Below are positions 4,636-56,800 of a DNA stretch of 64,000 nucleotides, piece by piece. Within the stretch, counting starts at the first letter, position 1; the number at the start of each line of letters is the position of its first letter. A program made the position numbers and the translations under genes. The DNA lies in contig JAGNLW010000001.1 of the NCBI GenBank assembly GCA_017999365.1, positions 130,239-194,238 on the forward strand. Reading direction: 5' to 3'. The notes beneath the pieces were generated by a model. The model made no database searches. It was not told the origin of the DNA and worked only from the letters and a program-made list of their open reading frames with translations. This DNA is from Candidatus Aminicenantes bacterium. Its GTDB lineage: Bacteria > Acidobacteriota > Aminicenantia > Aminicenantales > Saccharicenantaceae.

Positions 4636-4754
4636 GGCGGCCTCCTGGCCGAGGAGATAACACAAAAAGGGCGGCAGGGAAATAGGGGGATGGGTCTTGT
4701 GTCCTTCATTTGACGGGACTATAATCCGGCCAACCGGAGTCAGAGGAGGGAGCC

Positions 4755-5390: not shown

Positions 5391-5403
5391 CCAAGGAGAC
5401 GCC

Positions 5404-6162: not shown

Positions 6163-6163
6163 G

Positions 6164-6763: not shown

Positions 6764-6786
6764 GTCGCCCTCCTCGGGGAAAGCCC

Positions 6787-15942: not shown

Positions 15943-15957
15943 GTTCGCCCTCTCGCC

Positions 15958-16992: not shown

Positions 16993-17143
16993 GCCGCACT
17001 CTCCTACGGCCTAAGATAGCACAGGCGGCGCCCGCCCCCAAAACCGGAAAATGGGGACTTTGACGTCCCCGTTTCGCACTCCCTTGAAAAGGGCCGGGAA
17101 CGGAGTACAATACGCCCGAAATTCCCGCGGAGAACATGGCCCC

Positions 17144-36150: not shown

Positions 36151-36311
36151 CGTCCCCTTCGTTGACCCGGCCGCCGGATTCTCTTATAATCCGTCCGGGT
36201 GCACGGGGCAATGAGGCCCCGCGCAGGTTATCGCCTCACGGGTGGTCGGGCCGCCATCCTTATCGTCCCGGAACGCCTCCCCGGCGTTCGGGGCGCCGAT
36301 AGGGAGTCGCC

Positions 36312-41049: not shown

Positions 41050-41170
41050 GGAGGCACGTTAACATAGCCCACCTGTGGAATCAACGCGGCCGGCGGCCGC
41101 ACGGGAAGTTCCCCATGACCCGGATCGCCTTGACACATGTTCCCCGAGAGACTACCATCACTCCGCCCTC

Positions 41171-41265: not shown

Positions 41266-41338
41266 CTCCCCTTCCCGCCGAGCCCTTGACAACCCCGGCC
41301 ATCGGATTATCCTTATCTGCGGGGATCGGTAAGAAACC

Positions 41339-43257: not shown

Positions 43258-43848
43258 ATGACGCCCGCAACGAGGTCCGTCCGCGCCGCGCTCGCCGCGG
43301 CCTTCGCCCTGGCCGTCCTTCTCGCGCCCGCCGCGTCGGCCGAGGTCTTCAAGGCCCGCATGCTGACCGGCATGGCCCCCGTCGAACCGCCCATGGTCAA
43401 CGTCCAGATGGAGGTCACCGGCTGGACGACGCTCGAGGAGATCCGCCAGTTCCAGGACATCCTCGGCTCGGCCGGCATCGACGCCTTCCTGGCCGCCTTC
43501 AACCAGGCCGACAAGGGCACCGTCCGGTTCATGACCACGCGCGGCTGGAACCTGCCCATTCACGCGGCCGTGGTCGTGCCTGACGACAAAGGCGGCAAGG
43601 TTGTGCGGCTGTTCTTCAACCGCCAAAGCTGGAACCCGGGCTCCTACAAGCCGGTCGGGCGGCACTATTTCATGGCCATCGAGCTCAAGCTCAACGAGAA
43701 GGGCAAGGGCGAGGGCCGGTTCTACGAGGATGCCCAGCTCAAGCTGAACTCCCTCGCGGCGACCGTCGAGATCGAGACCTACGAGTCGGCCCCCAAGCTC
43801 TTCCCGCAGGTCCAGGAAGTGGTCAAGAAGGCCGACGCGAAGAAGTAG
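43258..43848 (+). CDS. Secreted hypothetical protein (196 aa)
   Basis: Signal peptide (...APAASAEV). Lys-rich native-like composition. It is the only long ORF in a lower-GC stretch. Confidence 0.6.
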   Translation: MTPATRSVRAALAAAFALAVLLAPAASAEVFKARMLTGMAPVEPPMVNVQMEVTGWTTLEEIRQFQDILGSAGIDAFLAAFNQADKGTVRFMTTRGWNLPIHAAVVVPDDKGGKVVRLFFNRQSWNPGSYKPVGRHYFMAIELKLNEKGKGEGRFYEDAQLKLNSLAATVEIETYESAPKLFPQVQEVVKKADAKK

Positions 43849-45427
43849 CGTAGAGATCGCCGCCCTTCCCGTCGTAGATGACGAAGGCGGGCAGGTCGCG
43901 GACGACGATCCTCCGGACGGCTTCCATCCCCAGGTCGGCGAAGTCGATCGTCTCGCTCGAGACGATGTGCTCCTTGGCGATGAGCGCGGCCGCGCCGCCG
44001 ATCGTGCCCAGGAACACCCCTCCCCCGGCCTTCAGCGCCTCGACGGCGGGAGCGGTCCGGTTGCCCTTGCCGATGGAGACGAGCGAGGCCCCGGCCTTCA
44101 GGAAGTCGGCCATATAGCCGTCCATACGCTGGGCCGTGGTCGGGCCGAAGCTGCCCGAGGGCATCCCCTTGGGCGTCTTGGCCGGGCCGGCGTAATAGAC
44201 GGGATGGTGCTTGAGGTAATCCGGCAGGTCGCCCGTCTCGCGGAGGATCTTCGCCAGCCGGGCGTGGGCGATGTCGCGGGCCACGACGAGCGGCCCCGAG
44301 AGGCGGACCATCGTGCCTACGGCCAGGCCCTTGAGCTTGGCCAGGATCACGGGCATGGGTTGGCCGAGATCGACGGTCACGGCCGCCGCCGGCCCGGCCG
44401 TCCGGGCACCCTCTAGGAACCGGCCCGGCCGCCGCTCAACCTCTTCCAGGAAGACGCCGTCGGCCGTGATCTTGCCGCGCAGGCCGCGGTCGGCGTTGCA
44501 GGAGACGCCCAGTCCGATCGGGCACGATCCGGCGTGGCGGGGCAGGCGGACGAAGCGCACTTCGTGGGCGAGATAGCGCCCGCCGAATTGCGCACCGAGC
44601 TCCGTCTCCCGAGCCAGGCGCATGACGCGCTCCTCCCAATCGAGGTCGCGGAAGGCGTCGCCGCGCCGGCCGCCTATCTTCGGCAGGCCGTCGAGGAAGC
44701 CGGCCGAGGCCAGCTTGACGGCTTTCAGGGTCGCCTCGGGCGACAGGCCGCCGACGACGACGGCGACGCGGTAGGGCGGGCAGGCGGCCACGCCGAGGGC
44801 ACGGATCTTCTCGGCCAAAAAGGCTTCGAGGGCCCCGTCCTCGAGCCGGGCCTTGGACTCCTGGAACAGGGCGATCTTGTTGGACGAGCCGCCGCCTTTG
44901 GCCAGGAAGAAGAACCGGTATTCGTCGCCGGGGACGGCCTGGAGCTCGATCTGGGCCGGCAGGTTCGTCCCGGTGTTGACCTCGTCCATGACCGTGAGCG
45001 GAGCCATGACGGAATAGCGCAGGTTGCGCGTCCGGTAGACGCGGGACGCGGCCGCCGCCAGGACGTCCTCGTCCCGGCCGTCGGTGACGACGCGGAAGCC
45101 CCGGCCGCCGAAAACCTGGATGGAGCCGGTGTCCTGGCAGAGCGGCAGGACGCCCTCGGCGGCGATGACGGCGTTACGCAGGACCGCCTCGGCCACGAAG
45201 CGGTCGTTGCCGGAGGCGTCAGGGGCGTCGAGGACGCGGCGCATGGCCGCCAGGAAGTCCGGCCGTAGGAAGAAGGCCAGGTCGGCGAAGGCCTCGCCGG
45301 CCAGGGCTTCGAGGGCGCCGTCGGCCACGCGCAGGGCCGGCCGGCCGCCGCAGGCGGCCTTGCGGACGCCCCGCGCCGCGAGCTTCCGGTACTTGACGCG
45401 ATCGCGTCCCAGGGCGAAGGCGTTCAT
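43823..45427 (-). CDS. Class I (Fe-S) fumarate hydratase-family hydro-lyase, fused alpha+beta. Probably acts as mesaconase/fumarase given its location.
   Basis: CQDTGS, one of the Fe-S cluster cysteine motifs of class I fumarases/tartrate dehydratases. 534 aa single-chain form. It sits at the end of the methylaspartate cluster. Confidence 0.85.
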   Translation of the reverse strand: MNAFALGRDRVKYRKLAARGVRKAACGGRPALRVADGALEALAGEAFADLAFFLRPDFLAAMRRVLDAPDASGNDRFVAEAVLRNAVIAAEGVLPLCQDTGSIQVFGGRGFRVVTDGRDEDVLAAAASRVYRTRNLRYSVMAPLTVMDEVNTGTNLPAQIELQAVPGDEYRFFFLAKGGGSSNKIALFQESKARLEDGALEAFLAEKIRALGVAACPPYRVAVVVGGLSPEATLKAVKLASAGFLDGLPKIGGRRGDAFRDLDWEERVMRLARETELGAQFGGRYLAHEVRFVRLPRHAGSCPIGLGVSCNADRGLRGKITADGVFLEEVERRPGRFLEGARTAGPAAAVTVDLGQPMPVILAKLKGLAVGTMVRLSGPLVVARDIAHARLAKILRETGDLPDYLKHHPVYYAGPAKTPKGMPSGSFGPTTAQRMDGYMADFLKAGASLVSIGKGNRTAPAVEALKAGGGVFLGTIGGAAALIAKEHIVSSETIDFADLGMEAVRRIVVRDLPAFVIYDGKGGDLYATSSRRPS

Positions 45428-46371
45428 TCGTAGATCCCCTCGACGTCGATGAGGTCCTCGAAGGCGTCCTCCCCTTTCTTGCCGACGAGGCCGATGACGT
45501 AATATTCCTTGCTCATGTGGTCGTAGCGGTATTCCTTGATGAGGCGGAAGTTCTCGATCTTGCCGCTCGAGGAGACGTGGGTCCGCGTCCCCGTGCAGGG
45601 CATGGTGCTCTCGCCGATGCCCAGGGTGTTTTCGCCGCAGACGGACAGCGGCACGTCCTTGGCGATGATGGCCAGGACCTTCTTCTCGAGCTCGTGGAGG
45701 TCGACGTCGGGCCGCTCCTTGAAGTTCAGGACGAAGCCCTGGCGGACGTCGGAGTGCAGGGGCGGGAAGGGGATGCGGTAGTCCTTCTCCAGGACCATGC
45801 AGGTGATGTCCTCGGCCGAGTGGGCCATCAGCCGGTACCTGATGGTCTTGTCGACGACCTCCTTGATGGCCCGGGGGAAGGGCCCGAAGACCGTCGGCCG
45901 GGCGACGATGATCTCCTCGCCGATGCCGATGAGGACCTGGGCGTTGTGGCCCAAGGACTCGTAGACGAGGTCGAAGTGCTCGACGACGACCCGGCGGTGG
46001 TGGGAGACGGCCTTGAGGATGGCCTCCGCGAGCTCGTACTTCTGGTGGAAGGCCAGCTCGTAGCGGGCGTCGATGTGGAAGGTGTGGCCCGAGAAGGGGT
46101 CGGCGGGGTCGAAATCGTAGAGCGGCGTCGGCCGGACGTTGATGCCCTCGTCGTCGTTGGTCAGCTCGAGCCCGGGGAAGAGCCCCTTGATGAGGGTCGA
46201 CTTGCCCGAGCCCTCAGCGCCGAGGATACCGATGAGCAGGTCGGTCGGCGTCAGGTACTTCTGGGCCAGCTCGGCCGCGACCATGTACAGCCGGTTGCTG
46301 CCGCGGGGGGCGTAGTAGGTGGCGTAGAGGAGCGTCTCGCGGTGGACCGTGCCTTGGCCGAGCTTCATCAT
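45424..46371 (-). CDS. P-loop NTPase of unknown function
   Basis: Walker A GILGAEGSGKST. 315 aa. Overlapping start/stop with its neighbours (ATGA) on both sides implies an operon with the fumarase-like gene and the DUF1446/DUF4387 pair. Confidence 0.55.
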   Translation of the reverse strand: MMKLGQGTVHRETLLYATYYAPRGSNRLYMVAAELAQKYLTPTDLLIGILGAEGSGKSTLIKGLFPGLELTNDDEGINVRPTPLYDFDPADPFSGHTFHIDARYELAFHQKYELAEAILKAVSHHRRVVVEHFDLVYESLGHNAQVLIGIGEEIIVARPTVFGPFPRAIKEVVDKTIRYRLMAHSAEDITCMVLEKDYRIPFPPLHSDVRQGFVLNFKERPDVDLHELEKKVLAIIAKDVPLSVCGENTLGIGESTMPCTGTRTHVSSSGKIENFRLIKEYRYDHMSKEYYVIGLVGKKGEDAFEDLIDVEGIYE

Positions 46372-46391
46372 GGAGCGGCCTCCTCTCTCCC

Positions 46392-46703
46392 CTAGTAGGT
46401 CAGGCTCAGGAGCGGGGCGTGCTGCTGCGCGCCGTAGATGTCGGTCTCGCCCGCGTCGCCCGACGGGATGGGCCGGCGCATGGTGATCTTGAGGGCGTTG
46501 CTGGGCTCGAAGTAGACGATCTTGAGGATGTCGGCGACGGGCCGCTTGTAGAGCGCGGCGACCTTCCTCTTGGTGACGATGTTCCGGCGGCGGAAGAGCT
46601 CGAAGTGCTCGCGGTCCTTGAACAGGATGTCGAGCGTCAGCTCGTAGGGCCCGGAGTTCTTGGACCGGATGACCTTGGCGGCGCCGAGGATGCTGCGCTT
46701 CAT
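46392..46703 (-). CDS. Small protein (103 aa), DUF4387-like
   Basis: Start ATG 46703 with an AGGAG RBS. It is the in-frame tail of artefactual ORF 46392..47795. It sits directly downstream of the DUF1446-like gene, a pairing I recall as conserved. Confidence 0.5.
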   Translation of the reverse strand: MKRSILGAAKVIRSKNSGPYELTLDILFKDREHFELFRRRNIVTKRKVAALYKRPVADILKIVYFEPSNALKITMRRPIPSGDAGETDIYGAQQHAPLLSLTY

Positions 46704-48097
46704 GATATCTCCTTTCCGCCCCGGAAGACGACCGTCCGGGCTGGGAAATCGTCCGGACGGGCGACCGGCATCAGGTGATAGACCGAGAACTCGAAGACCT
46801 CGCCCATTTTGGCATCGGAGGGCGAGAAAGGCAAGGCCAGGTTGCCGGCCGTCGAGATGCGGCCGGGATAGCCGTAGTGGAGCAGGGTCGAGCGGGTCAG
46901 GCCGCAGACCGAGTCGGCCGCGGCCTGGGTCGGACCGACGGCCTCGATGACGAGGCCCAGCTCGTGCGAGCGGACCGTCTTCTCGGGCTCCAGGGCGCCC
47001 ATGACCCCGTCCTTGCCGTAGACGTGGAAGAAGACCCGGCCCTCGACCTTCTCGGCCGCCAGGATGTCCTTGACCTGGGACTCGACGCCGGCCAGGATGC
47101 CGTCGATCTCGCGGATCATGATGGGGTCGCGGGTGCCGGCCACGGCGATGGTCCGGTAGCCGACCCGGCGGACGCCCTCGAGCTTGACGAAATACCGCTC
47201 GGTCTCGACGTGGCGGCTGCCGCGGACCTCGACCCGGCCGCCGGGAAGCTCGGTGAACGAGCAGGCGGTCAGGTCGAGCTCGCCGCCGGGGCCCGGCAGG
47301 TGATAGGGATCGGTCTTCTCGTAGAGGGTGTGGGCGGCCGTCGAGACCTTGGTGAAGCGGCGCTTGGGATTGAGGGACTCGAGGACGAAGGAGTCCTCGG
47401 TGAGGGTGGCGAAGGCGCAGTCGGCCCCGGAGCCCGGCGTCGCGGCGATGGCCGCGCACTCCAGGATCTTGCCCATGTGGATGGCCAGGCCCGGGCCGAA
47501 GCCGCGGGCGATGGGCAGGGCGGCGAAGACGGCCGGGTCGTAGCAGCGGCCGGCCAGGACGACCTGGCAGCCGTCCGCCAGGGCCTTCTGGATGGGCTCG
47601 ACGCCCATCTGGCAGACGACGTTGACCGACTCGTCGAGGACGGCCTCGGTGAGCGGCGGGACATAGGTCAGCGGCACGATCTCGCCCTTGCGCAGGTGCC
47701 TGCGGACGACGGCCTTGGGGACGTCGGAGTAGATGATGCCCAGCGTGAAGCTCAGCTTCTCCTCGGCCGCGATCTCGCGGACGATCTCCTCGCACCAGTC
47801 GACGTGGGGCCGGGCCCCGCTGCCGCCGGCCGTGCCGACGACGACGGGGATGCCGCGCTCGACGCCGGCCTTCAGCATGAAGCGCAAGTCGCGCTTGACG
47901 GCCGAGCGGTCGGTGAAGGACTTGCCCGCCCCGAGGTAGTAGGGGCCGGGGTCGGTCGAGCCGGCGTCGGCCCCGATGAGGTCTGGCTCCTTGGCCAGGC
48001 CGGCCATGAAGGAGGCCTCCGGGAAGCCGTAGCCGAGGATGGCCGTCGTCGACAGGACGCGGAACTCTTTCTTGGCTTTTTTCGGCCGGGCGGCCAT
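46700..48097 (-). CDS. DUF1446 (AtuA-like) family protein, function unknown
   Basis: 465 aa. AGGAGG RBS. Its stop overlaps the start of the small downstream gene. The family assignment is from recollection of the conserved DUF1446+DUF4387 gene pair and is uncertain. Confidence 0.55.
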   Translation of the reverse strand: MAARPKKAKKEFRVLSTTAILGYGFPEASFMAGLAKEPDLIGADAGSTDPGPYYLGAGKSFTDRSAVKRDLRFMLKAGVERGIPVVVGTAGGSGARPHVDWCEEIVREIAAEEKLSFTLGIIYSDVPKAVVRRHLRKGEIVPLTYVPPLTEAVLDESVNVVCQMGVEPIQKALADGCQVVLAGRCYDPAVFAALPIARGFGPGLAIHMGKILECAAIAATPGSGADCAFATLTEDSFVLESLNPKRRFTKVSTAAHTLYEKTDPYHLPGPGGELDLTACSFTELPGGRVEVRGSRHVETERYFVKLEGVRRVGYRTIAVAGTRDPIMIREIDGILAGVESQVKDILAAEKVEGRVFFHVYGKDGVMGALEPEKTVRSHELGLVIEAVGPTQAAADSVCGLTRSTLLHYGYPGRISTAGNLALPFSPSDAKMGEVFEFSVYHLMPVARPDDFPARTVVFRGGKEIS

Positions 48098-48098
48098 G

Positions 48099-49352
48099 TC
48101 AGGCCTCCTTCCCCGTCCGCGAGCGGAGCACGGCCAGGACCCGCTCCATCTCGTTGCGGACGATCATGTAGCCCTCGTCGAAGCCCATGCCCGGCTTGGC
48201 CAGCAGGCGCTCGGCCCGGGCGGCCACGGCGGCGTGGACGCAGGCCTTGGCCGAGACCTCGGTCTCGTTGCAGGTGCCGCCCTGGTAGGCCTCCATGCCG
48301 TGGGCCCGGCAGTGGAGGACGGCCTCGATGGTGTTCTGGATGCCGCCGAGGTCGGGCGTCTTGATCTGGACCATGTCGCAGGACTGGGCGGCCGTGAAGT
48401 CGACGACGTCCTCGTAGGTGTTGCACCACTCGTCGGCGACGATCTTGACCCGGGAGCCCTTGGCCCGCAGCTCGCGGCGGATGGCGGCCAGGAGCTCGAT
48501 CTGTCGGGGCTTCTCGCCGGCGTCGACGGGCCCCTCGATGTAGAGCGGGAACTCGCCGGCCACGGGCTCGAGCGAGGCCAGGTAGTCGGCCACGCGGGCC
48601 GGCTTGAGGGCGCAGATGACGCCGATCGTGCCGTAGACGTCGATGTGGAGGGTCGGGACGTAGGCGGGGTCGGTCCGGACCTTGCGGATGCGGTCGACGA
48701 GCCAGCCGACGTACTCGCGGAGGAGCTCGCCCTCGTGGCCGAGCTTGGTCTTGACGTTGTTGATGAGGGCGTGGGGCAGGACGTCGACCCGCTTCATGAT
48801 CATCTTGTCGGCGTTGATGTAGCGGTCGTCGCCGCTCTGCCCGAAGATGGGCACGCGCTCGGCGACGACGGGCAGGCCGTACTCCTCGCAGACGACCTCG
48901 GCCATGATCCGGCCCGTGGCCAGGGCCCGGGCGTGGAGCAGGGCCTGGGACAGGCCGTAGCGGATGGCCGTGTGCAGGCGCCGCCCCCCGAACTCGAGGG
49001 CCTCGAACCGGGCGGCCAGGTCGCGGAAGCGGCCGACCTCGGCGCCCTCGAGAAGGGGCCGTATCTCGCGCTCGAGGAGGGGCAGGTAATCGGCGGCGAG
49101 GAACAGGGGGTCGCGGCCGCCGGCCCCGGAGTACTGGACGGCGGCGCAGTCACCCAGGGCCCAGCTGCCGTTCTCGAGCTGGAGCAGGACGGACAGGGCC
49201 TCGCCGGCGACCCGGACGGCCTTGAAGCCGGGGGTCTCGGGCTTGCCTCCGTAGACGGCGCCGTCGTGCGGCGCGCCGGATTTGATGGCCTGCTGGTCGT
49301 CGAAATAGAAGGCCGACGACCCGGGCACGAACAGGGCTTTGACGATCTTCAT
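48099..49352 (-). CDS. Methylaspartate ammonia-lyase (beta-methylaspartase)
   Basis: Start MKIVKALFVPGSSAFYFDDQQAIK (MAL N-terminal signature). 417 aa enolase-superfamily protein. It is the tail of artefactual ORF 48099..50237. Confidence 0.9.
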   Translation of the reverse strand: MKIVKALFVPGSSAFYFDDQQAIKSGAPHDGAVYGGKPETPGFKAVRVAGEALSVLLQLENGSWALGDCAAVQYSGAGGRDPLFLAADYLPLLEREIRPLLEGAEVGRFRDLAARFEALEFGGRRLHTAIRYGLSQALLHARALATGRIMAEVVCEEYGLPVVAERVPIFGQSGDDRYINADKMIMKRVDVLPHALINNVKTKLGHEGELLREYVGWLVDRIRKVRTDPAYVPTLHIDVYGTIGVICALKPARVADYLASLEPVAGEFPLYIEGPVDAGEKPRQIELLAAIRRELRAKGSRVKIVADEWCNTYEDVVDFTAAQSCDMVQIKTPDLGGIQNTIEAVLHCRAHGMEAYQGGTCNETEVSAKACVHAAVAARAERLLAKPGMGFDEGYMIVRNEMERVLAVLRSRTGKEA

Positions 49353-50800
49353 TTGGGCCTCCCGATGAGCTTGCCTTTGCTGATGGCATAGATGTCGTCG
49401 GTCACCATCTGGAAGGTGACCGGGCGCCCCTCGGTCCGGGACCGCTCCTGCAGGCGCTCCTTGTGGAAGTTCATGATGTCGTCGCCGAGGGGCAGGGCGC
49501 CCTTGGCGAAGAGGCGGATGTAGCCCTCGTTGTCGCGGATGGGCAGGACCTTGCCCTTGTTGTAGACCGACGGGGCGAAGGGCACGTCGAGGATGCCGGA
49601 GGCGAAGGCCCGGACGACGCCCTGGACGAGGTCGTCGCCGGCGGCCGACAGGACGGCCCGCATGAGGGCGTCGACCTCGCGGCGGATGAGGTCCTTCTCG
49701 CGGTCGACGACGGCGTTGTCGGTGCAGATCCTCTGGTCCTGCATCATGCTCAGGACCTGGCGGGTGGCCTTGAGCCCGGCCGCGTTGGCCTCCTTGGTCG
49801 GGATGCCCATGGCCTCGTGGGGGGACTTGACGATGGTCTTCTCGACCTTGCCGGCGGCGGCGACGAAGGCGCCCGTGCTGATGACCGAGAAGGCCTTGGC
49901 CTCGTCCTCGGGGAAGCCGCCCATCCACTGGTGGAAGACCAGGGTCAGGTCGTAGTCGGAGAAGCCGGCGGCGCGGAAGTACTCGTCGGCGAGCTCCCGG
50001 AGGGAGGCCAGGGCGGCCAGGTCCTGCAGGACGTTGCCGCCCTGCCCGTAGCCGAGGGTCAAAGATTTGACGCCCTGCTCGAGGGCCAGCAGGCCCTCGA
50101 GGATGGCCACGGTGTGGGAGATGAAGGGCGGCACGAGGGTCCCCGTCAGCGGGCCGAAGGGCTCGCGGTTGACGCTGATGCCGTTCTCCTCGTAGTAGCC
50201 GGTCAGCCGGTCGACGTACTGCCAGTGGCGCAGGCACTCCCCGACCTCGACCTTCTTGGCGTAGGGGATGTTGTAGGAGATGCCGCCGCCCTCGTAGGAC
50301 GTGAAGCCGCCGGCCAGGGAGATCTCGGCCAGCAGCCGGGCGTCCGGGGTGCCGTGGCGGACCTGGGTCGGCCGGGAGACGGCCTCGGTGACCTTGCGGC
50401 AGCCGTCGCGGCCGTGATTGACGGCCGGGAAGCCGTTGAGGAGCGAGGTGCCGGCGGCCCGCGACTTCTCGATGCCGCGGGCGGCCTCTTCGTAGCGGTT
50501 CTGCCGCGTGTAGGCGTCGATCGTCGTCGGCAGGAGGTCGGCCGTGCCCTCGGTCTCGAGGAAGCGGAGCAGGCGGATGTGGTCGTCGATGAGGGCCACG
50601 CCGGCCCGCGGTTGGATGAGGGTGCGGCCCTCGGCCTTGGCCTTGGCCATGGCTTTGGCGAAGTTCTTTTCCGCGGGCAGGGCGCGCTGGTAGCGCAGGC
50701 CGTCCTCGATGTCGGCGACGTCCCGGCCGGTCGGCCAGGAGTCGAGCACGGCCTGGCGCTGGGCCAGAAAGTCCTTCCAGGGCATGCGGTGGTGTGTCAT
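49349..50800 (-). CDS. glmE: Glutamate mutase epsilon (E, catalytic) subunit / methylaspartate mutase E chain
   Basis: 483 aa, the typical GlmE/MutE size. Conserved along its whole length. Start overlaps the MAL start region (ATGA). Confidence 0.9.
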   Translation of the reverse strand: MTHHRMPWKDFLAQRQAVLDSWPTGRDVADIEDGLRYQRALPAEKNFAKAMAKAKAEGRTLIQPRAGVALIDDHIRLLRFLETEGTADLLPTTIDAYTRQNRYEEAARGIEKSRAAGTSLLNGFPAVNHGRDGCRKVTEAVSRPTQVRHGTPDARLLAEISLAGGFTSYEGGGISYNIPYAKKVEVGECLRHWQYVDRLTGYYEENGISVNREPFGPLTGTLVPPFISHTVAILEGLLALEQGVKSLTLGYGQGGNVLQDLAALASLRELADEYFRAAGFSDYDLTLVFHQWMGGFPEDEAKAFSVISTGAFVAAAGKVEKTIVKSPHEAMGIPTKEANAAGLKATRQVLSMMQDQRICTDNAVVDREKDLIRREVDALMRAVLSAAGDDLVQGVVRAFASGILDVPFAPSVYNKGKVLPIRDNEGYIRLFAKGALPLGDDIMNFHKERLQERSRTEGRPVTFQMVTDDIYAISKGKLIGRPK

Positions 50801-50811
50801 GGGTGTCCTCG

Positions 50812-52230
50812 TTATGCCTTTCGATCGGAGAGGGGCGTCAGGAGCTTGAGCCCGGCGACGGCGGCGCGGGCGGCCGCGTCGGGGAATTCCGCCGCCAGGT
50901 TCCCCAACAAGGGGAAGAGGTATTGGGCGTCCGCGTAGCAGGCCGGGTCCTCGGGGACCAGGTGCCGCGTGTCGGGGTCGGTCGAGCCGGGGGCGCGGAC
51001 CTCGAGCAGCAGGGACGGGTCATCGTGGCCGGCCAGGAAGCCGCCCGAGCCGACGAGGCGCGAGACCCGGCGGAGGTCCTTGCCGCGTTGGACATCGAAG
51101 CCGCCCTGGGGCGTGAAGACCCGTTGGACGACGCCGGCGTGCCGCAGGGCCGAGGCCCGGACGCAGGCGGCGGCCAGGAGGCGGTCGAAGCGCCGGCCGC
51201 GGTCGTCGGCGGGCAGGCGGTCGGTGGCCCGGCTGACCTCCTCGACATAGGCCTTGAGCGCGGCCGGCGTCTCGCCGAGGGCGGCCAGGCGCGACTCGAG
51301 GAAGGCGGCCTCGGACCGGTACAGGGCTTCGGCCGAGACCCGCAGGCCCAGGTCCCCCTCGACGGTCCGCTTGAGCCGGGGCTCGCGCAGGCCGCGCAGG
51401 AGGACCGTGTCGCCGCCGTGGAACGATTCCGTGTGCGAATAGAAGTCGGTCGTGGCCCCGCCCATGTCGATGAGGGCGAAGTCCTGCCAGCCGGGGACGC
51501 GCTCGCCGATCGTGCGGACGAGCTCGAAGACGGCCAGCGGGGTCGGCAGGGGCTCGCGGCCGGCCGCGGCCGCGACGCCGGACAGGCCCTTGCCGTCGAC
51601 GATGCGCTCGAGGAAGGCCCGACGGATGACCTCGCGGGCCGGCTCGATGTCCAGGACGCCGACCTCGGGCATGACGTTGGCGGCCGTGACCAGATCGAGC
51701 CCGGCCAGGAGGCGGGCCACGTCGTCGCGGACCTTGCGGTTGCCGGCGTAGAGGTGGACGGCCGGCAGGGCCGCTTCGGCCAGGCGGGCGGCGTTGTGGA
51801 GGACGATCCGGGCATTGCCGCCGTCGGTGCCGCCGGTGAGGAGGACGATGTCGGGGGCGGCCGCGGCCAGCTCGGCCAGGTCGTCGGAGGCCAGCTCGTA
51901 GGAGAAGGCCCGGACGACCTTGCCGCCGGCCGAGGTCGCGGCCATGCGGGCGACGGAGAGCGTCAGGTCGGGGGTCAACCCGACGGCGGCGATCTTGAGC
52001 CCGCCGCGGGCCGACGAAGACCAGTGGACGGGGACGGCCGAGGCGTCGGCCGCGGGCAGGCCGGCGCAGACGGCTTCGCGGACGGCGGAGAAACCGCGGC
52101 CGAGGTCGTCGACGGTGGTCGGCCGGACGGCCCGGGCGACCGGGCGGAGCTCCTCCCCGGCCAGGGAGAACAGGCCTCCCTTGGTGTAGGTCGACCCGAT
52201 GTCGACGGATAGGAGGAGCCGGGCGTCCAT
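50812..52230 (-). CDS. glmL: Glutamate mutase component L (GlmL/MutL, ASKHA-fold reactivase/chaperone)
   Basis: Start MDARLLLSVDIGSTYTKGG (MutL-type DxGST motif) with an AGGAGGAG RBS. 472 aa. It is the tail of artefactual ORF 50812..52443. Confidence 0.8.
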   Translation of the reverse strand: MDARLLLSVDIGSTYTKGGLFSLAGEELRPVARAVRPTTVDDLGRGFSAVREAVCAGLPAADASAVPVHWSSSARGGLKIAAVGLTPDLTLSVARMAATSAGGKVVRAFSYELASDDLAELAAAAPDIVLLTGGTDGGNARIVLHNAARLAEAALPAVHLYAGNRKVRDDVARLLAGLDLVTAANVMPEVGVLDIEPAREVIRRAFLERIVDGKGLSGVAAAAGREPLPTPLAVFELVRTIGERVPGWQDFALIDMGGATTDFYSHTESFHGGDTVLLRGLREPRLKRTVEGDLGLRVSAEALYRSEAAFLESRLAALGETPAALKAYVEEVSRATDRLPADDRGRRFDRLLAAACVRASALRHAGVVQRVFTPQGGFDVQRGKDLRRVSRLVGSGGFLAGHDDPSLLLEVRAPGSTDPDTRHLVPEDPACYADAQYLFPLLGNLAAEFPDAAARAAVAGLKLLTPLSDRKA

Positions 52231-52232
52231 CG

Positions 52233-52652
52233 TCAGTTCTTCCGGGCCTCGATGTCCTGGCGGAGCAGGCGGACGGCCTCGGCCAAGTCGACCTGGGGCG
52301 GGAAGACCCGGTCGAAGCCCATGGCCTTGAACTTCCGCTCGACCTCCTCGAAGGGGGTCTTGCCGACGACGAGGTTGCCGCCGGCGTAGAGCAGGACCGA
52401 CTCCAGGCCGCGCTCGACGGCCTTCTGGCGCAGGCCCTCGCAATCGATGAGGCCGTGGCCGTAGAGCGAAGAGACCAGGATGGCCTTGGCGTCCGACTCG
52501 ACGGCGGCGTCCAGGAACTCGTCCTGGCTGACCATGACGCCGAGGTTGACGACGTGGAAGCCGGCCTCCGTGAAGTAGGCGTCGAGGATCTTGTTGCCGA
52601 CCGAGTGGCAGTCGGCCCCGATGACGCCCAGGACGATGCGCGGGGCGTCCAT
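52233..52652 (-). CDS. glmS: Glutamate mutase sigma (S, B12-binding) subunit
   Basis: 139 aa. RIVLGVIGADCHSVGNKIL is the cobalamin-binding DxHxxG region of MutS/GlmS. Confidence 0.9.
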   Translation of the reverse strand: MDAPRIVLGVIGADCHSVGNKILDAYFTEAGFHVVNLGVMVSQDEFLDAAVESDAKAILVSSLYGHGLIDCEGLRQKAVERGLESVLLYAGGNLVVGKTPFEEVERKFKAMGFDRVFPPQVDLAEAVRLLRQDIEARKN

Positions 52653-53656
52653 CACAGGCTCCGGGGGCCTTCGTCGAGGAGCGTCCTCAGGCGCTCCTCC
52701 ACGTTGAGCAGGGACCCCCGCTCGATCTGGTAGTCGAACGGGATGATGGTCCCGCCTCGCTCGGTGAACTCCTGGAGGGCGGCCAGGTGCTCGCGGTCGC
52801 GCTGCAGGGAATAGCCGGCCGGGATGATGACGGCGTCGAGCCCGGCGATGAAGGCGCCGAGGCGGTCGAGCTCGGACCAGAACAGCGGGGCCACGGCGGA
52901 GCCGGGCACGTCGAAGGCCTTGAGGTGGTCGAGGACGATCTCCAGGAAGCGCCGGGACTCGCAGACGACGCCGATCTTCTGGGACGGCGTCAGGCGGGCC
53001 AGGGCGATGATGGAGTTGCGGGTCGGGGCCATGGCCACCTGGACGAGCTTGGCCTTGAGGCCGGGGAAGCGCTCCAGGACCTCGCCGAAATGGGTCGTCG
53101 TCGTCAGGACCAGGTCGAAGTTCTGCAGGCGCTCGGCGCCCTGGGGATCCTCGAGCAGGTCGTCGACCAGGAACTTGGCCATGTTGACCCGGGGGATGAT
53201 CTGGAACTGGCGCTCGATGATGGACAGGGTCTCGGGGTTGCAGTCGACGGCGGCCACGTTGAGGTTCTGGAGGTCGTCCTCGCGCCCGAGCAGGCGGAGG
53301 TCGAAGAAGATGCGGATGTCGTGGGCGCTGAACTTGAGGCGGGCCAGCTCGTCGATGAGCTCGTCGATGAGGCGGAGGGCCTTGTCCTTGCGGCTCTCGG
53401 CCGGCGAGGTGCGCTCGGGGGCGACGAAGCTGCCCCGGCCGGGTGCGGCCTCGATGAGGCGGCGCCGGACGAGCTCCTCGTAGGCCTTCTTGACCGTGCC
53501 CCGGGCGGTGTGGAGGTCCCCGGCCAGGTCGCGCTCGGCGGGCAGTTTCTGGCCCGGCTTCATGCGGCCGGACTTGATCTGCTTCTCGAAGAACTCCATG
53601 ATCTGCTGATAGGCCGGCTTGGCCCCAGGAAATTTCTCGAGCTTGAAACCGTCCAT
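52652..53656 (-). CDS. GntR-family transcriptional regulator with C-terminal ligand-binding domain
   Basis: N-terminal winged HTH (...GQKLPAERDLAGDLHTARGTVKKAYEEL...). 334 aa. Sits at the head of the glutamate mutase operon. Confidence 0.8.
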   Translation of the reverse strand: MDGFKLEKFPGAKPAYQQIMEFFEKQIKSGRMKPGQKLPAERDLAGDLHTARGTVKKAYEELVRRRLIEAAPGRGSFVAPERTSPAESRKDKALRLIDELIDELARLKFSAHDIRIFFDLRLLGREDDLQNLNVAAVDCNPETLSIIERQFQIIPRVNMAKFLVDDLLEDPQGAERLQNFDLVLTTTTHFGEVLERFPGLKAKLVQVAMAPTRNSIIALARLTPSQKIGVVCESRRFLEIVLDHLKAFDVPGSAVAPLFWSELDRLGAFIAGLDAVIIPAGYSLQRDREHLAALQEFTERGGTIIPFDYQIERGSLLNVEERLRTLLDEGPRSL

Positions 53657-53668
53657 GCTTACTCCTTA

Positions 53669-53798
53669 TGGTATGTACCAATAATAATTGGACTATACCT
53701 TTTATATACCGCCTGATAATGTTTGTCAAGTGAAAATTATGTCAAAGGTATGGACCAATAAGAAACCACTTGCCATCGCGGTCCACCATATATATAAT
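53669..53798 (+). promoter_or_regulatory. Divergent control region: direct repeats GGTATGTACCAATAA (53670-53684) and GGTATGGACCAATAA (53747-53761), plus TTGCCA-17-TATAAT promoter (53770-53798)
   Basis: AT-rich 160-bp intergenic region between the GntR gene and the giant ANL-GNAT gene. Repeat 1 contains the perfect palindrome GGTA-TG-TACC (GntR-type operator). A third degenerate copy (GGTATAGTCC, reverse) lies at 53690-53699. Confidence 0.45.
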
Positions 53799-53815
53799 GA
53801 GGGGGAGGGAATGTC

Positions 53816-56800
53816 ATGAAAGCGGAGCCTTCCCGTTACGCCCGGGACCTCCAGCGCCTGCTCGAGGCCTGGGCGGGACCGAAGGGAAAACGGCGGCCGG
53901 GGCCCGGGACGACCGGGAACAGCGCCCTGGAGCTCCTGGAGCGGGTGGAGCGGGACCTCTCCGGGGGGCGGGGTCCATCTCGCGAGGCTGGCCGGGAGTT
54001 CCTGCGGATCACCTCCGATCCGCGCTTCCTCCGCGAGCTCGGCCGCACCGACCTCCAGACACGTTGGGCCGAGGCTTGCTTCGCCCTCATCCAAGCCACG
54101 GGATACGGCATCGGCGATCTCTTCGAGGACCGGGTCCGGGAGACGCCCGGCCGGGTCTTCCTCCAGGACATGGCGGTCTCCCCTCCCCGTCTCTGGACCT
54201 ACGAGGCGGCGGCCCGCCACGTCCGCGAGACCGCGGGGGCCCTCTACGCCCTGGCCGACGCGGAGGGGATCGAGCCGCGTCTGGCCATCTACGCCGAGAA
54301 CCACGCCGAGGGCGCCGTCGCCGACCTGGCCTGTCTTTGCACCGACATCCTCGACACCCCCGTCAATCCCCATTTCAGCCTGGAGAACGTCGTCGGCGTC
54401 TGCGACGCACTGGCCATCAACATGGTCCTGGCCAACGACCGGGAGCGGATCGGTCTTCTCCGCGAGGCCCGCCGGCGCGCGGCCCGGCCGTTCCGCATCC
54501 TGGTCACCGATCCGGGCCTGAACGACGGCGGAGAGGACATCGTCTTCCTGACCGAGTACGCCAAGCAGCTCGGCGCCCGCGACGTCGAGGCCCGCCTGGC
54601 CCGGCGCCGGCGCTTCCGTCTGGACGAAGTGGCCACGGTCATGTTCACCTCGGGTTCGACGGGCCGGCCCAAAGGCGTCTCGTTCTCCATCTACAACCTG
54701 ATCAGCAAGCGCTTCGCCCGGGCCGCCGCCCTGCCGCTGGTCGGCCCCGAAGAGGTCTTCCTGAGCTTCCTGCCGCTCTACCACACCTTCGGCCGGTACC
54801 TCGAGCTCCTGGGCACGATCTATTGGCGAGGAACCTACGTCTTCGCCGGCAATCCCTCGGCCGAGACCCTGTTCAGGCTCATGCCCAAGGTCCGGCCGAC
54901 CGGCTTCATCAGCGTCCCGGTTCGCTGGGCCCAGCTCCACGAGCGCTGCCTCGAGCGCCTCGACGCGGCGCCGGCCGGGGCCGACGCCGGGGCCATCGTC
55001 CGCGAGGTCGTCGGGACGCGCCTGGCCTGGGGGTTGTCGGCCGCCGGCTACCTGGATCCCCGGGTCTTCCGCTTCTTCCAGGCCCACGGCGTCGAGCTCA
55101 TGAGCGGCTTCGGCATGACCGAGGGCACCGGCGGCATGACCATGACCCCGCCCGGCGGCTACGTCGACAACTCCCACGGCCTGCCCCTCCCGGGCCTCAC
55201 GGCCCGGCTCGGGGAGAACGGCGAGCTCCAGGTCTCGGGCCATTACGTCGCCCGCTACCTCGAGGACAAGGGCCCCGGCGACACCGTCCCCGTCCCGACG
55301 GGCGACCCTGAGCGCGACCACTGGTTCGCGACCGGCGACGTCTTCGAGCGCCAGGCCAACGGCTACTACCAGATCGTCGACCGCATCAAGGACATCTACA
55401 AGAACAACCGCGGCCAGACCGTGGCCCCGCGCAAGGTCGAGGACAAGTTCGTCGGCGTGCCGGGCATCAAGCGGACCTTCCTCGTCGGCGACGGCCGGCC
55501 CTACAACGTCCTGTTCATCGTCCCGGACGCGGCCGACCGGGTCCTGGCCGGCGGGCTGGCCCGGGAGAGCGACCGGGAGAACCTCCGCGAGTATTTCCGG
55601 CGCATCGTCACGGCCGCCAACGAGGGCCTGGCCCCGTACGAGAGGGTCGTCAACTTCGAGGTCCTCGGGCGGGACTTCGATCCCGAGGCCGGCGAGGTGA
55701 CGGCCAAGGGCTCCTACAACCGCAAGCGCATCGAGGCCGCCTTCGCCGGGGCCATCGACGACCTCTACCGACGCCGCGCCGTCGACCTTCGCGGCCAGGG
55801 CCTGACCGTCCGTCTGCCGCTCTGGTTCTTCCGCGACCTGGGCATCCTCGAGGACGAGATCGTCCGCGACCGCGACGGCCTGCGGGACCTCAACAGGGGC
55901 CTGCGCCTGCCCCTGCGGCGCGGCTCGGACGGGCGGACCTGGCTCGTCGGCGACCTCGAGTACGAGATCGAGGGCGGCCTCCTCGACCTCGGGCTGTTCG
56001 CTCGCCAGCCCGTCCTCTGGGTCGGCAACCCCTCGCTGGCCGCCTTCGCTCCCTGCAAGGAGGGCTGGGACCTGCCCCTCGAGCCGGCCACCGGCTGGGT
56101 GTCCCTGCCGCGGCGCCGGGCCCGGACCTACACGGAGGCCGAGACGCCGCCTCCGGCCAAGCTCGGCGACGCCCGCCTCGGCCGCCTCCACGTCCTGCTG
56201 GCCAAGCTCCTGTTCTCGCCCGAGGACGTCCCGGACGCCGTCCTGGCCGAGGTCGAGCGCGTCTTCTACGAATCGCCCCTGCGGACCGAGGAGCTCGTCC
56301 GGGCCCGCCTGCGGGCCATGGCCTGGCACCCGAGCCCGCGGCTGCGCTGCTGGGCCTACCGCATCCTTCTCATCCACGACCCGGACATCGACTACGGCCA
56401 GGTCATGCCGGCCTTCGTCAGTTCGGGCCTGCCCTTTCTCGACCGGGAGAGCATCGACGAGATCGCCTCGGCCCGTCTCGGACGAGGCCGGCTGGACGCC
56501 TTCCGGGTCCGCCTGCGGGCCTACCGCGAGACCATGCCCTGGCCGGTCACCGCGCCCTACCGGCGCCAGTTCGAGCGCATCTTCCGCCTGCTCGTCGACC
56601 TGGCCGGGCGCGAGCCCTCCTTCTTCAGTTCCGTGCGGGCCGAGCTGGCCAGCTGGGTCCTGCACCGGGCCGACCCCGAACTGGCCCGGACGGCCGAGCG
56701 CCACCTCGACCGCATGGTGGCCCGGTTCGGCCGGAACGCCGCCGCCGGCACGCGCGCCGCGTCCGAACGCAGGCCGCCGCGCCCGATCTGCGACGACAGC

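Follow-up and report, generated by a model that had tools for sequence, protein, structure and literature searches.

A methylaspartate-pathway operon from a Candidatus Aminicenantes bacterium with a predicted CmlAB citramalate lyase and an uncharacterised P-loop protein that accompanies glutamate mutase

The window analysed here, a 64-kb stretch of DNA from a Candidatus Aminicenantes bacterium, carries nine closely packed genes on its minus strand at positions 43823-53656, and both the gene coordinates and the family matches agree with a preliminary description of this region as a nine-gene methylaspartate-pathway cluster. Read in order, these encode a GntR regulator (52652-53656, 334 aa; PF00392, 56.9 bits), GlmS (52233-52652, 139 aa; TIGR01501, 198.6 bits against a cutoff of 135.8, and NF002612, 213.5 against 110), GlmL (gene also named mutL; 50812-52230, 472 aa; PF13941, 415 bits; TIGR01319, 398 against 204; NF040745, 450, slightly below the cutoff of 475), GlmE (49349-50800, 483 aa; TIGR01503, 717 against 390), methylaspartate ammonia-lyase or MAL (48099-49352, 417 aa; TIGR01502, 552.5 against 286), a DUF1446/AtuA protein (cmlA, 46700-48097, 465 aa), a DUF4387 protein (cmlB, 46392-46703, 103 aa), a P-loop protein (the NTPase, 45424-46371, 315 aa) for which no Pfam or NCBIfam family scores above threshold, and a single-chain class I fumarase (43823-45427, 534 aa; PF05681 and PF05683, with 214 bits for Fumerase and 210 for Fumerase_C). 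From the GntR gene to the fumarase gene, the junctions measure -1, +2, +11, -4, +1, -4, +20 and -4 nt. The three genes between mal and the fumarase gene had been described as translationally coupled. This holds for cmlA with cmlB, and for the NTPase gene with the fumarase gene, whose start overlaps the NTPase stop by 4 nt, but not for cmlB and the NTPase gene, which are separated by a 20-nt gap holding a GGAGG-type ribosome-binding site.

Upstream lies an AT-rich region (53657-53800, minus strand) that reads as the promoter/operator of the operon, with a candidate -35 element (TTGACA, 53729-53724) and a candidate -10 element (TATAAA, 53706-53701) separated by a 17-nt spacer. The GntR-type half-palindromic box GGWNNAKWCC occurs three times within 87 bp (53747-53756, 53690-53699 and 53670-53679), with just five further matches in the 64 kb. 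The TTGACA-N17-TATAWA arrangement and the GGTATAGTCC box are found again upstream of the GntR gene at the related loci L002-L022, as is one box directly ahead of the GntR ribosome-binding site, and the boxes are a plausible GntR operator. The regulator itself consists of an N-terminal winged helix followed by a C-terminal domain of ~250 aa; its orthologues in relatives bear PF27163 (YmtS_Ross), and it is encoded at 44 of 46 loci of the clade resembling the window. As its stop codon and the start of glmS overlap, the regulator is co-transcribed with the operon. The locus reads as a single, probably self-repressed operon that covers every step of the methylaspartate route by which glutamate becomes pyruvate and acetate.

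The first steps of this route are assigned from sequence: in glutamate (methylaspartate) mutase, GlmS is the B12-binding subunit S and GlmE the catalytic subunit E, whilst GlmL is an ASKHA-fold glutamate mutase accessory protein with a presumed reactivase role. The coenzyme-B12-dependent GlmS/GlmE enzyme, with GlmL as accessory, would yield (2S,3S)-3-methylaspartate, which MAL (66% identical to E. coli O157:H7 ECs_0761) would deaminate to mesaconate. Hydration of mesaconate to (S)-citramalate would fall to the class I (Fe-S) fumarase-type hydratase, presumed on its genomic context to be a mesaconase. Class I fumarase models match this protein at 562-578 bits, under the equivalog cutoffs of ~1100, and it shares 46% identity with the characterised mesaconase/fumarase FumD of E. 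coli (PMC4682846). The single-chain form, previously likened to the enzyme of clostridial pathways, resembles FumD instead; the clostridial mesaconase has two subunits.

Both Pfam assignments of the next two proteins were borne out, at 64.7 bits for PF07287 (cutoff 22.8) and 125.6 bits for PF14330 (cutoff 27). In phmmer searches, the DUF1446 protein matched PDB 9erq_A, "Citramalate lyase, subunit A (cmlA)", over residues 10-446 (E = 5.2e-177) and the DUF4387 protein matched 9erq_B, "Citramalate lyase, subunit B (cmlB)" (E = 2.6e-30). The depositors' names cmlA and cmlB stand on chains A and B of PDB 9ERQ/9EVF; these names, together with the use of the enzyme in one preprint, are the basis of the lyase assignment. 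With identities of 61% (CmlA to ECs_0760) and 53% (CmlB to ECs_0759), the two proteins are orthologues of the E. coli O157:H7 pair and are predicted to form a two-subunit CmlAB citramalate lyase, which would split (S)-citramalate to acetate and pyruvate independently of the CitDEF acyl-carrier machinery. Consistent with the earlier view that CitDEF is lacking nearby, tblastn with E. coli queries (E<=1e-3) found no homologue of CitC, D, E, F, X or G in the 64-kb window, nor did Pfam scans of its other large ORFs. The proposal that all three genes serve the citramalate-cleaving step therefore survives for the DUF1446 and DUF4387 proteins as CmlAB homologues, but not for the P-loop protein, which is no lyase subunit; nor is the enzyme undescribed, the pair having already been deposited (PDB 9ERQ/9EVF).

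The arrangement resembles known systems to differing degrees. The CmlAB system ("Cml" of Raoultella planticola; ECs_0760/ECs_0759) has the same two subunits, encoded by an AtuA-family gene (~460 aa) and a DUF4387 gene (~105 aa) that lie head to tail right after mal; here, however, the host belongs to another phylum (Aminicenantes-like, 70% GC), the lyase is known from sequence, and the additional 315-aa gene follows cmlB. The presence of a DUF1446 gene beside mal was already remarked upon in the enterobacterial cluster (Kronen and Berg 2015; PMC4682846), which shares glmS-glmL-glmE-mal-DUF1446-DUF4387 and, further on, a single-chain class I fumarase. In E. coli O157:H7 the order is glmSLE-mal-ECs_0760-ECs_0759-transporter-fumD-cobA; this cluster differs in having the transporter, cobA and a LysR-type regulator, and in lacking the GntR regulator and the 315-aa protein. 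Clostridial-type CitDEF/CitCXG clusters share the pathway, the glmS-glmL-glmE-mal core and the GntR regulator, and those of gut Oscillospiraceae also encode a 315-aa homologue (~47% identity), but they possess the acyl-carrier-protein-dependent CitDEF, its activation genes and a two-subunit fumarase where the window has CmlAB. As the same operon is found in many diderm phyla as well as in E. coli O157:H7, its occurrence in a high-GC diderm is not in itself notable, contrary to the earlier view.

The family of the 315-aa protein is small and highly conserved, and has neither a solved structure nor a functional annotation. Residues ~1-165 form a TsaE-like P-loop ATPase domain (Walker A, GAEGSGKST), and residues ~166-300 a domain like the AlaX-type editing domains of ThrRS and AlaRS, with invariant H184-x3-D188 and C259-x5-H265; in all, the protein has many invariant His, Cys and Asp residues. 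Neither likeness reaches the Pfam threshold: the score is 15.8 bits (threshold 26.6) for TsaE (YjeE), a small ATPase that takes part in making tRNA t6A, and 18.9 bits (threshold 24) for tRNA_SAD. With E. coli TsaE, hhalign aligns the P-loop only (probability 14.5%) and, unlike TsaE, the 315-aa protein carries a second, fused domain and lies outside a tsaB/tsaD context. Compared with AlaX and the editing domains, it has HxxxD for HxxxH, Cx5H for CxxxH and a fused ATPase, and any tRNA link is putative; the AlaX-like domain is nonetheless its best-supported structural feature. In other phyla, this protein has a median identity of 64.6% to the copy in the window, close to GlmE (66.3%) and MAL (66.1%) and above the fumarase (53.8%), the GntR regulator (48.5%) and GlmL (47.4%). 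Such conservation, on a par with that of catalytic enzymes, is consistent with an enzyme for universal small molecules.

Distribution argues that the P-loop protein is a separate accessory. Across the 50-kb region of the E. coli cluster, no homologue is detectable with a threshold as lax as E = 10, whilst in the clade resembling the window the gene follows cmlB at 68 of 71 loci and precedes the fumarase gene at 63. In the CitDEF-type clusters of gut Oscillospiraceae it adjoins citD or stands between citC and citXG, to which it is translationally coupled, and is not next to fumAB. It directly follows mal, with no lyase nearby, at L037, L043, L066 and L079, and accompanies glmS-glmL-glmE in Desulforamulus reducens and Carboxydothermus ferrireducens, where lyase and fumarase are absent. 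Within 10 kb of the gene, glmE or mal is present at 45 of 46 and 22 of 22 well-flanked loci, the former count also speaking, as far as these loci go, against a gene set found broadly without glutamate mutase. The constant partner across all cluster types is glutamate mutase (glmS, glmE), although the NTPase gene never adjoins glmS, glmL or glmE in two large locus sets; in Hydrogenispora ethanolica it is directly followed by glmL. Exceptions are L045, which carries cmlA-cmlB-NTPase with no mutase within 8 kb, and two Planctomycetota loci with no nearby glmL.

These patterns bear on what the protein might do. That it is a third subunit which the DUF1446/DUF4387 lyase cannot do without, or an ATP-dependent activase of this lyase, the three genes forming one system as first proposed, would fit its place after cmlB (68/71), the isolated trio of L045 and, in Oscillospiraceae, its coupling to citC/citXG, which serve to activate the other type of lyase. 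It is nevertheless very unlikely: the protein is absent from enterobacterial CmlAB clusters, cmlAB alone sustains E. coli growth that depends on mesaconate, and the gene accompanies the non-homologous CitDEF lyase, follows mal at the four loci with no lyase nearby and persists in Firmicutes clusters with no lyase whatever. We regard as similarly improbable a role in the ATP-dependent maintenance of the metal or Fe-S content of the mesaconase, an oxygen-labile enzyme of class I fumarase type. The adjoining fumarase gene (63/71 loci, with the 4-nt overlap in the window), an NTPase-fumA-fumB unit 4 kb from cmlAB at L084, the numerous invariant His, Cys and Asp residues and the need of recombinant FumD for chemical reactivation with Fe2+ and thiol (PMC4682846) speak for it, but ten NTPase loci (L037, L045, L069, L078, L169, L171, L172, L173, L174 and L175) have no fumarase within 10 kb, the gene does not lie beside fumAB in CitDEF-type clusters and there is no likeness to known Fe-S or metal-insertion NTPases. 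The least probable of these roles is that of a ligand-sensing ATPase or kinase partnering the GntR(YmtS_Ross) regulator. TsaE relatives have been reported to be protein kinases, the regulator is present at 44 of 46 window-like loci, and the E. coli cluster lacks regulator and NTPase together, with a LysR regulator in place; yet in the Firmicutes clusters L171 and L172 the NTPase is present and this regulator is not, and the conservation of the NTPase is enzyme-like (64.6% against 48.5% for the regulator).

The main rival to the cofactor role that we favour below is proofreading, in which the protein would be a hydrolase clearing misplaced 3-methylaspartate, likeliest from mischarged tRNA, through its AlaX/ThrRS-editing-like domain, with the TsaE-like domain giving regulation or specificity. 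Both editing-motif counterparts are invariant (H184-S-A-E-D188 for HxxxH and C259-T-G-x-R-x-H265-V for CxGxHV), the nearest relatives of both domains are tRNA-related proteins, and the constant partner, glutamate mutase, produces the non-proteinogenic amino acid. In three Firmicutes lineages, moreover, the gene lies directly upstream of that for RNase PH, in two of them directly after a gene for an RNase Z-like MBL phosphodiesterase. However, the glm module may have been inserted into a conserved Firmicutes gerM-racE-rph neighbourhood, which would account for this proximity and make it a single event rather than independent evidence. Known trans-editing factors work without an ATPase, the 315-aa protein is acidic (pI 5.65), one motif histidine is substituted and the Cys-His spacing differs; the enterobacterial cluster also makes 3-methylaspartate yet lacks the protein, and misactivation of this compound by a tRNA synthetase is hypothetical. 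On balance, proofreading seems unlikely, if less so than the preceding three roles.

Our preference, a tentative one, is that the 315-aa protein keeps glutamate mutase loaded with intact adenosylcobalamin. It might carry out an ATP-using recycling step, adenosylation or exchange, possibly with ASKHA-fold GlmL as partner, much as TsaE works with ASKHA-fold TsaB/TsaD. Other B12-enzyme operons carry their own cobalamin recycling (PduGH/PduS/PduO, EutA/EutT). Like the pdu and eut sets and the E. coli glm cluster with its cobA, the operon would have an accessory ATP-using gene alongside a reactivase-type ASKHA protein (GlmL), and the 315-aa gene would hold the place of the adenosyltransferase found in pdu, eut and enterobacterial glm clusters. 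We favour this role because cobA is present and the NTPase missing in the E. coli cluster, whilst no CobA homologue occurs at ~160 NTPase loci (nor any recognised adenosyltransferase family among ten Pfam-annotated ones), and because Firmicutes clusters add an ATP-driven low-potential reductase pair, HGD-D and an acyl-CoA dehydratase activase (TIGR00241, 194 bits). The likeness is one of genomic logic: of the two proteins compared by sequence, CobA shows no similarity past the P-loop (hhalign probability 2.9%) and the MeaB match is confined to it (E = 0.19). Cofactor maintenance is further weakened because it gives the AlaX-like domain no role, because the complementarity with CobA stands on one lineage, and because of L045 without mutase, the Planctomycetota loci without glmL and the lack of adjacency to glmS, glmL or glmE in the two large locus sets.

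Taken together, a methylaspartate-pathway operon with a CmlAB lyase and a separate, mutase-linked accessory 315-aa protein is likely to be the correct description of this locus. The latter, an NTPase of uncharacterised role, goes with glutamate mutase across many bacterial phyla.

The nine open reading frames of the operon are packed head to tail into positions 43823–53656 of the minus strand, with junctions of −1, +2, +11, −4, +1, −4, +20 and −4 nt, in a window whose G+C content is 64–74%. The coordinates, lengths and gene order given for them in the preliminary description were all correct. The first gene encodes a GntR-family regulator (Pfam/NCBIfam) and is followed on the same strand by those for GlmS, glutamate mutase subunit S (TIGR01501, 198.6 bits, cutoff 135.8), GlmL (TIGR01319, 398 bits, cutoff 204), GlmE, glutamate mutase subunit E (TIGR01503, 717 bits, cutoff 390) and methylaspartate ammonia-lyase (MAL; TIGR01502, 552.5 bits, cutoff 286). 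Next come an AtuA/DUF1446 protein (PF07287, 64.7 bits) and a DUF4387 protein (PF14330, 125.6 bits), both family assignments having been anticipated and here confirmed by profile searches, then a 315 amino acid P-loop protein (45424–46371; hereafter the NTPase) matching no Pfam or NCBIfam family above threshold and, finally, a single-chain class I fumarase. The fumarase retains both fumarase domains, scores below the FumA equivalog cutoffs and is 46% identical to the characterised FumD. The operon is thereby predicted to encode the methylaspartate-pathway set of mutase subunits S and E, ammonia-lyase and a citramalate-cleaving enzyme.

The last of these activities can be assigned, at the level of sequence, to the DUF1446/DUF4387 pair, which is predicted to be the CmlAB citramalate lyase. 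Searching the PDB returned a single match for each protein, chains A (456 aa) and B (105 aa) of 9ERQ/9EVF, named by their depositors ‘Citramalate lyase, subunit A (cmlA)’ and ‘subunit B (cmlB)’. The DUF1446 protein matches 9ERQ chain A over residues 10–446 (E = 5.2e-177) and the DUF4387 protein matches chain B over residues 1–102 (E = 2.6e-30). The two genes adjoin with a 4-nt overlap and are linked with mal and a class I fumarase gene both in the window and in E. coli O157:H7 Sakai, where the order is glmS-glmL-glmE-mal-ECs_0760-ECs_0759-transporter-fumD-cobA and where ECs_0760 shares 61% identity with the window CmlA and ECs_0759 shares 53% with CmlB. FumD has been characterised as a mesaconase by Kronen & Berg (PMC4682846), who also remarked that in Enterobacteriaceae and Dictyoglomus mal has a DUF1446 gene downstream of it. 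A preprint reports that growth of E. coli on mesaconate depends on Cml; the rMASP preprint is silent on Cml and GlmL. Conversion of (S)-citramalate to pyruvate and acetate is known for the enterobacterial enzyme only (from the preprint and the PDB depositor names). Pfam and NCBIfam (release 20; June 2026) name no function for the CmlA and CmlB proteins, and a literature search found no paper linking AtuA to citramalate or Aminicenantes to methylaspartate.

The preliminary description had reported that no CitDEF homologue is present, and this is borne out within the 64-kb window: tblastn with the E. coli CitC, D, E, F, X and G proteins gave no match there at E ≤ 1e-3, and PF06857, PF03328 and PF04223 were not found in the window ORFs scanned. 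An Atu-type terpene or CoA-ester module was also considered and rejected, only the AtuA Pfam domain matching (64.7 bits) and neither the operon nor its flanks containing genes for a carboxylase or an acyl-CoA dehydrogenase. The three genes between mal and the fumarase gene had been proposed to form an undescribed system processing citramalate or mesaconate. The underlying observation holds, as does a lyase role for two of the three (through the 9ERQ matches), but the NTPase falls outside the lyase and CmlAB had already been established by others (PDB 9ERQ/9EVF). Nor do the three genes constitute one system: enterobacterial CmlAB is encoded without the NTPase, and the NTPase is also found with CitDEF or with no lyase. 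The suggestion that such a pathway would be notable in a high-GC diderm does not survive either, the same operon being present across many diderm phyla and in E. coli. The cluster thus belongs to an already known type, and its residual novelty is the 315 amino acid protein.

Upstream of the GntR gene (53657–53800) is a 144-bp AT-rich island within a window of 70% G+C. The island contains a promoter-like TTGACA-N17-TATAAA sequence and, within 87 bp, three GGWNNAKWCC boxes (53670–53679, 53690–53699 and 53747–53756), of which just five more occur in 64 kb. This layout recurs upstream of the GntR regulator in related loci and for that reason is likely to represent a putative autoregulatory operator set at a self-repressed promoter. 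Divergent from the operon, on the plus strand, is a 1557 amino acid ORF (53801–58474) with an N-terminal AMP-binding (adenylate-forming) region, a C-terminal GNAT domain and ~800 central residues without an assigned family. The downstream flank encodes an SNF-family sodium symporter (36303–37991, plus strand) that could be an amino acid importer, a protein-arginine-deiminase (PAD) family protein (39397–41058, minus strand) and a Kelch-repeat propeller (41333–42997, plus strand). None of these four proteins is part of the methylaspartate pathway. Elsewhere in the window (15301–17010, minus strand), a KDPG/KHG aldolase gene adjoins one for a PfkB-family sugar kinase, likely a 2-keto-3-deoxygluconate module and unrelated to the operon. 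The operon's nearest relatives are in metagenome-assembled genomes labelled Candidatus Aminicenantes/Aminicenantales, with NTPase identities of 95% and 89%; one TPA assembly labelled ‘Eubacteriales’ encodes an NTPase with 98% identity.

Close homologues of the NTPase number in the thousands (2272 scored matches in one search, 3323 and 2320 in others) and carry source names including ‘hypothetical’, ‘lantibiotic ABC transporter’, ‘TsaE’ and ‘alanine-tRNA synthetase second additional domain-containing protein’. Among 1.84 billion representatives clustered at 50% identity there are 260 matches at E ≤ 1e-3, mostly fragments, with around six divergent full-length lineages; the family is small and closed. 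Its median identity to the window protein in other phyla is 64.6%, compared with 66.3% for GlmE, 66.1% for MAL and 65.7% for CmlA; GlmL (47.4%), the fumarase (53.8%) and the GntR regulator (48.5%) are less conserved. The NTPase is therefore conserved as strongly as the catalytic enzymes. No solved structure or functional annotation exists for the family, no discussion of it was found in our literature search and no informative fusions were seen among its members. In one 577 amino acid protein from the family search (P0246), only the last ~105 residues match the NTPase C-terminal domain, the N-terminal region being unrelated; this may be a chimeric gene call.

An AlphaFold2 model of the NTPase, built from a 30-sequence alignment, has a mean pLDDT of 75. 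The N-terminal domain (residues ~1–165) displays the TsaE fold and the C-terminal domain (residues ~166–300) that of the AlaX-like editing domains. The TsaE family profile (PF02367) aligns with residues 31–140 below its gathering threshold (15.8 versus 26.6 bits, E = 0.014), an hhalign comparison of the NTPase alignment with E. coli TsaE covered only the P-loop, and what links the domain to TsaE is still a similarity in fold and motifs. Neither tsaB nor tsaD was present in the NTPase neighbourhoods examined, where the context is one of glutamate mutase clusters. In place of the HxxxH and CxxxH motifs of the AlaX/ThrRS-AlaRS editing domains, the C-terminal domain has an invariant H184-x3-D188 and C259-x5-H265, and tRNA_SAD scores below its cutoff (18.9 versus 24 bits). 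Homology to CobA was rejected, hhalign against the E. coli protein giving a probability of 2.9% over the P-loop only; the Pfam MeaB family likewise matched at the P-loop only (E = 0.19), and a PDB profile search with the NTPase alignment gave only Walker-A matches to ABC ATPases.

Both large-collection scans for related loci were seeded with the NTPase, so the counts that follow describe NTPase-bearing loci. At least 578 matches were obtained when a single genome of each species was scanned. According to their record titles, the 80 best-scoring ones belong to Aminicenantes, Saccharicenans, Acidobacteriota, Spirochaetota, Planctomycetota, Riflebacteria/Ozemobacteria, Raymondbacteria, Elusimicrobia, Lentisphaerae, Kiritimatiellae, and delta-proteobacterial and Myxococcota genomes. 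In nearly all of these 80 loci (L002–L081) the order is GntR-glmS-glmL-glmE-mal-cmlA-cmlB-NTPase-fumarase. In the 46 loci flanked by 8 kb or more upstream and 3 kb or more downstream, glmE, MAL and CmlA/B are each found in 45 (CmlA/B accompanying glmE/MAL in 45/46) and a fumarase of any kind in 41. The NTPase gene comes after cmlB in 68 of 71 loci and before a fumarase gene in 63 of 71. An apparent absence of glmL in two loci reflects frameshifted copies, and two Planctomycetota loci are truly without a nearby glmL. In two Microflora Danica genomes (L006 and L009), glmL is split into several frames, and here and there so are glmE and mal; these look like assembly frameshifts and not pseudogenes. 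Four loci (L037, L043, L066 and L079) have the NTPase directly after mal, with no lyase, and in one (L045) no mutase gene lies less than 8 kb from cmlAB-NTPase. An uncultured bacterium (L169, on a 677-kb contig) encodes a 950 amino acid GlmL–GlmE fusion (4211–7063), and there the NTPase gene is followed by an aminotransferase gene, not a fumarase gene.

A second clade, from the gut and rumen and belonging to Oscillospiraceae by source names, emerged when metagenomes were scanned with a divergent member as the seed. Here the cluster is of the classical type, citD-citE-citF-fumA-fumB-GntR-glmS-glmL-glmE-mal running in one direction, and the NTPase gene is divergent from citD in 43 of 61 loci or sits after citC, between citC and citXG, in 16 of 61. 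GlmE, CitDEF and FumAB are encoded together in all 22 well-flanked loci. One CitDEF-type Oscillospiraceae locus (L168, JGI 3300018494) lacks fumarase genes and has, 8 kb away, a gene for a PrpD/MmgE-family dehydratase that could take on the hydration step; in this cluster citXG is followed by genes for a PGA_cap (CapA-like) protein and an MFS transporter. On gut contigs, histidine-utilisation genes (for an imidazolonepropionase-like amidohydrolase and urocanase) converge on the NTPase gene (L139, 11199–14546), an arrangement consistent with histidine serving as a source of glutamate for the methylaspartate pathway.

A third arrangement is seen among cultured Firmicutes, whose genome-sequenced carriers of the gene include Desulforamulus reducens MI-1, Carboxydothermus ferrireducens, Feifania hominis and Petroclostridium sp. 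X23. The D. reducens locus (L171; CP000612.1, 2899541–2920512) reads glmS-glmL-glmE-mal-HGD-D-activase-MBL phosphodiesterase-NTPase-rph and that of C. ferrireducens (L172) racE-glmS-glmL-glmE-HGD-D-activase-MBL-NTPase-rph, the latter without mal. In both, HGD-D, an acyl-CoA-dehydratase-type activase (TIGR00241) and an RNase Z-like MBL phosphodiesterase precede the NTPase (7289–9986 in L171, 7533–10004 in L172), and neither has a lyase or a fumarase. This looks like a different, undescribed system for the use or maintenance of glutamate mutase. In a Desulfitobacteriaceae genome the NTPase again precedes rph, with two signalling genes between it and glmE-mal-HGD-D-activase-fumAB. Petroclostridium sp. 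X23 and F. hominis have the CmlAB form with no fumarase nearby and Hydrogenispora ethanolica (L175, 10001–12421) has GntR-glmS-glmE-mal-cmlA-cmlB-NTPase-glmL, glmL having moved from between glmS and glmE to directly behind the NTPase.

The NTPase thus occurs with glutamate mutase in three cluster architectures in more than ten named lineages, and only glmS and glmE (glmL nearly so) are common to every architecture. That these two genes alone are constant leads us to infer that the NTPase is tied to glutamate mutase or its product 3-methylaspartate. It is not a CmlAB subunit or obligatory activator, since enterobacterial CmlAB works and is encoded without it (there being no trace of the NTPase gene in the E. 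coli cluster region), since it also accompanies the non-homologous CitDEF, and since clusters without any lyase retain it. These last clusters led to a lyase-accessory role being dropped as the main explanation, despite the adjacency statistics. A role as an accessory to the mesaconase is weakened by the many loci without fumarase, and one as a partner of the GntR regulator by clusters lacking that regulator. Outside the enterobacteria, the family behaves like a regular constituent of glutamate mutase clusters.

Two mechanisms fit this association. Operons for adenosylcobalamin enzymes, such as pdu and eut, commonly encode their own reactivase and adenosyltransferase, and our favourite by a narrow margin, itself less likely than not, is that the NTPase would serve in cofactor maintenance of glutamate mutase. 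The E. coli glm cluster has glmL and cobA and no NTPase; reciprocally, a CobA homologue is encoded at none of the ~160 NTPase loci collected, and recognised adenosyltransferase families are absent from the Pfam-annotated neighbourhoods. TsaE is known to partner proteins with the ASKHA fold, to which class GlmL also belongs, and the enzyme-like conservation of the NTPase would suit substrates as universal as ATP and cobalamin. The Firmicutes clusters add an ATP-driven low-potential electron-transfer pair, and relatives of this HGD-D/activase-type pair reduce difficult metal centres (PMC7317905). Cofactor maintenance leaves the AlaX-like domain unexplained, however, and the NTPase has no homology to any known B12 accessory protein (CobA and MeaB were compared) and is not adjacent to the glm genes in most loci.

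The C-terminal domain instead suggests proofreading, in which the NTPase would hydrolyse 3-methylaspartate wrongly attached to tRNA, or a related aminoacyl ester. Hydrolysis of mischarged aminoacyl-tRNA is the sole known activity of this fold, counterparts of whose catalytic or metal residues are retained, and the NTPase's constant partner, glutamate mutase, has a non-protein amino acid as its product. In Firmicutes the gene also lies between those for an RNase Z-like phosphodiesterase and RNase PH, but the rph adjacency is probably a single ancestral insertion into a gerM-racE-rph neighbourhood. Proofreading is not known to need an ATPase, the NTPase is acidic (pI 5.65) and the enterobacteria manage without it, and we consider this explanation unlikely, less so than its more specific form. 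That form, in which the NTPase founds an unrecognised enzyme family (a TsaE-like ATPase joined to an AlaX/ThrRS-editing-like domain) dedicated to mutase systems and carrying out pathway-linked proofreading of 3-methylaspartyl-tRNA, would be a long shot.

The methylaspartate pathway has been studied since the 1950s, and yet it may hold an unrecognised component in the 315 amino acid protein. Identification of CmlAB here is of value mainly for annotation, and shows that the pathway in its CmlAB form is widely distributed among uncultured anaerobes, Aminicenantes, Spirochaetota, Planctomycetota and Riflebacteria included. The role of the NTPase could bear on maintenance of the B12 cofactor or on protection against a non-protein amino acid, and could be of consequence for current attempts to employ glutamate mutase and Cml in synthetic biology. 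Were pathway-linked proofreading to prove correct, the NTPase would be the first editing factor found inside a catabolic operon, guarding translation from the operon's own intermediate.
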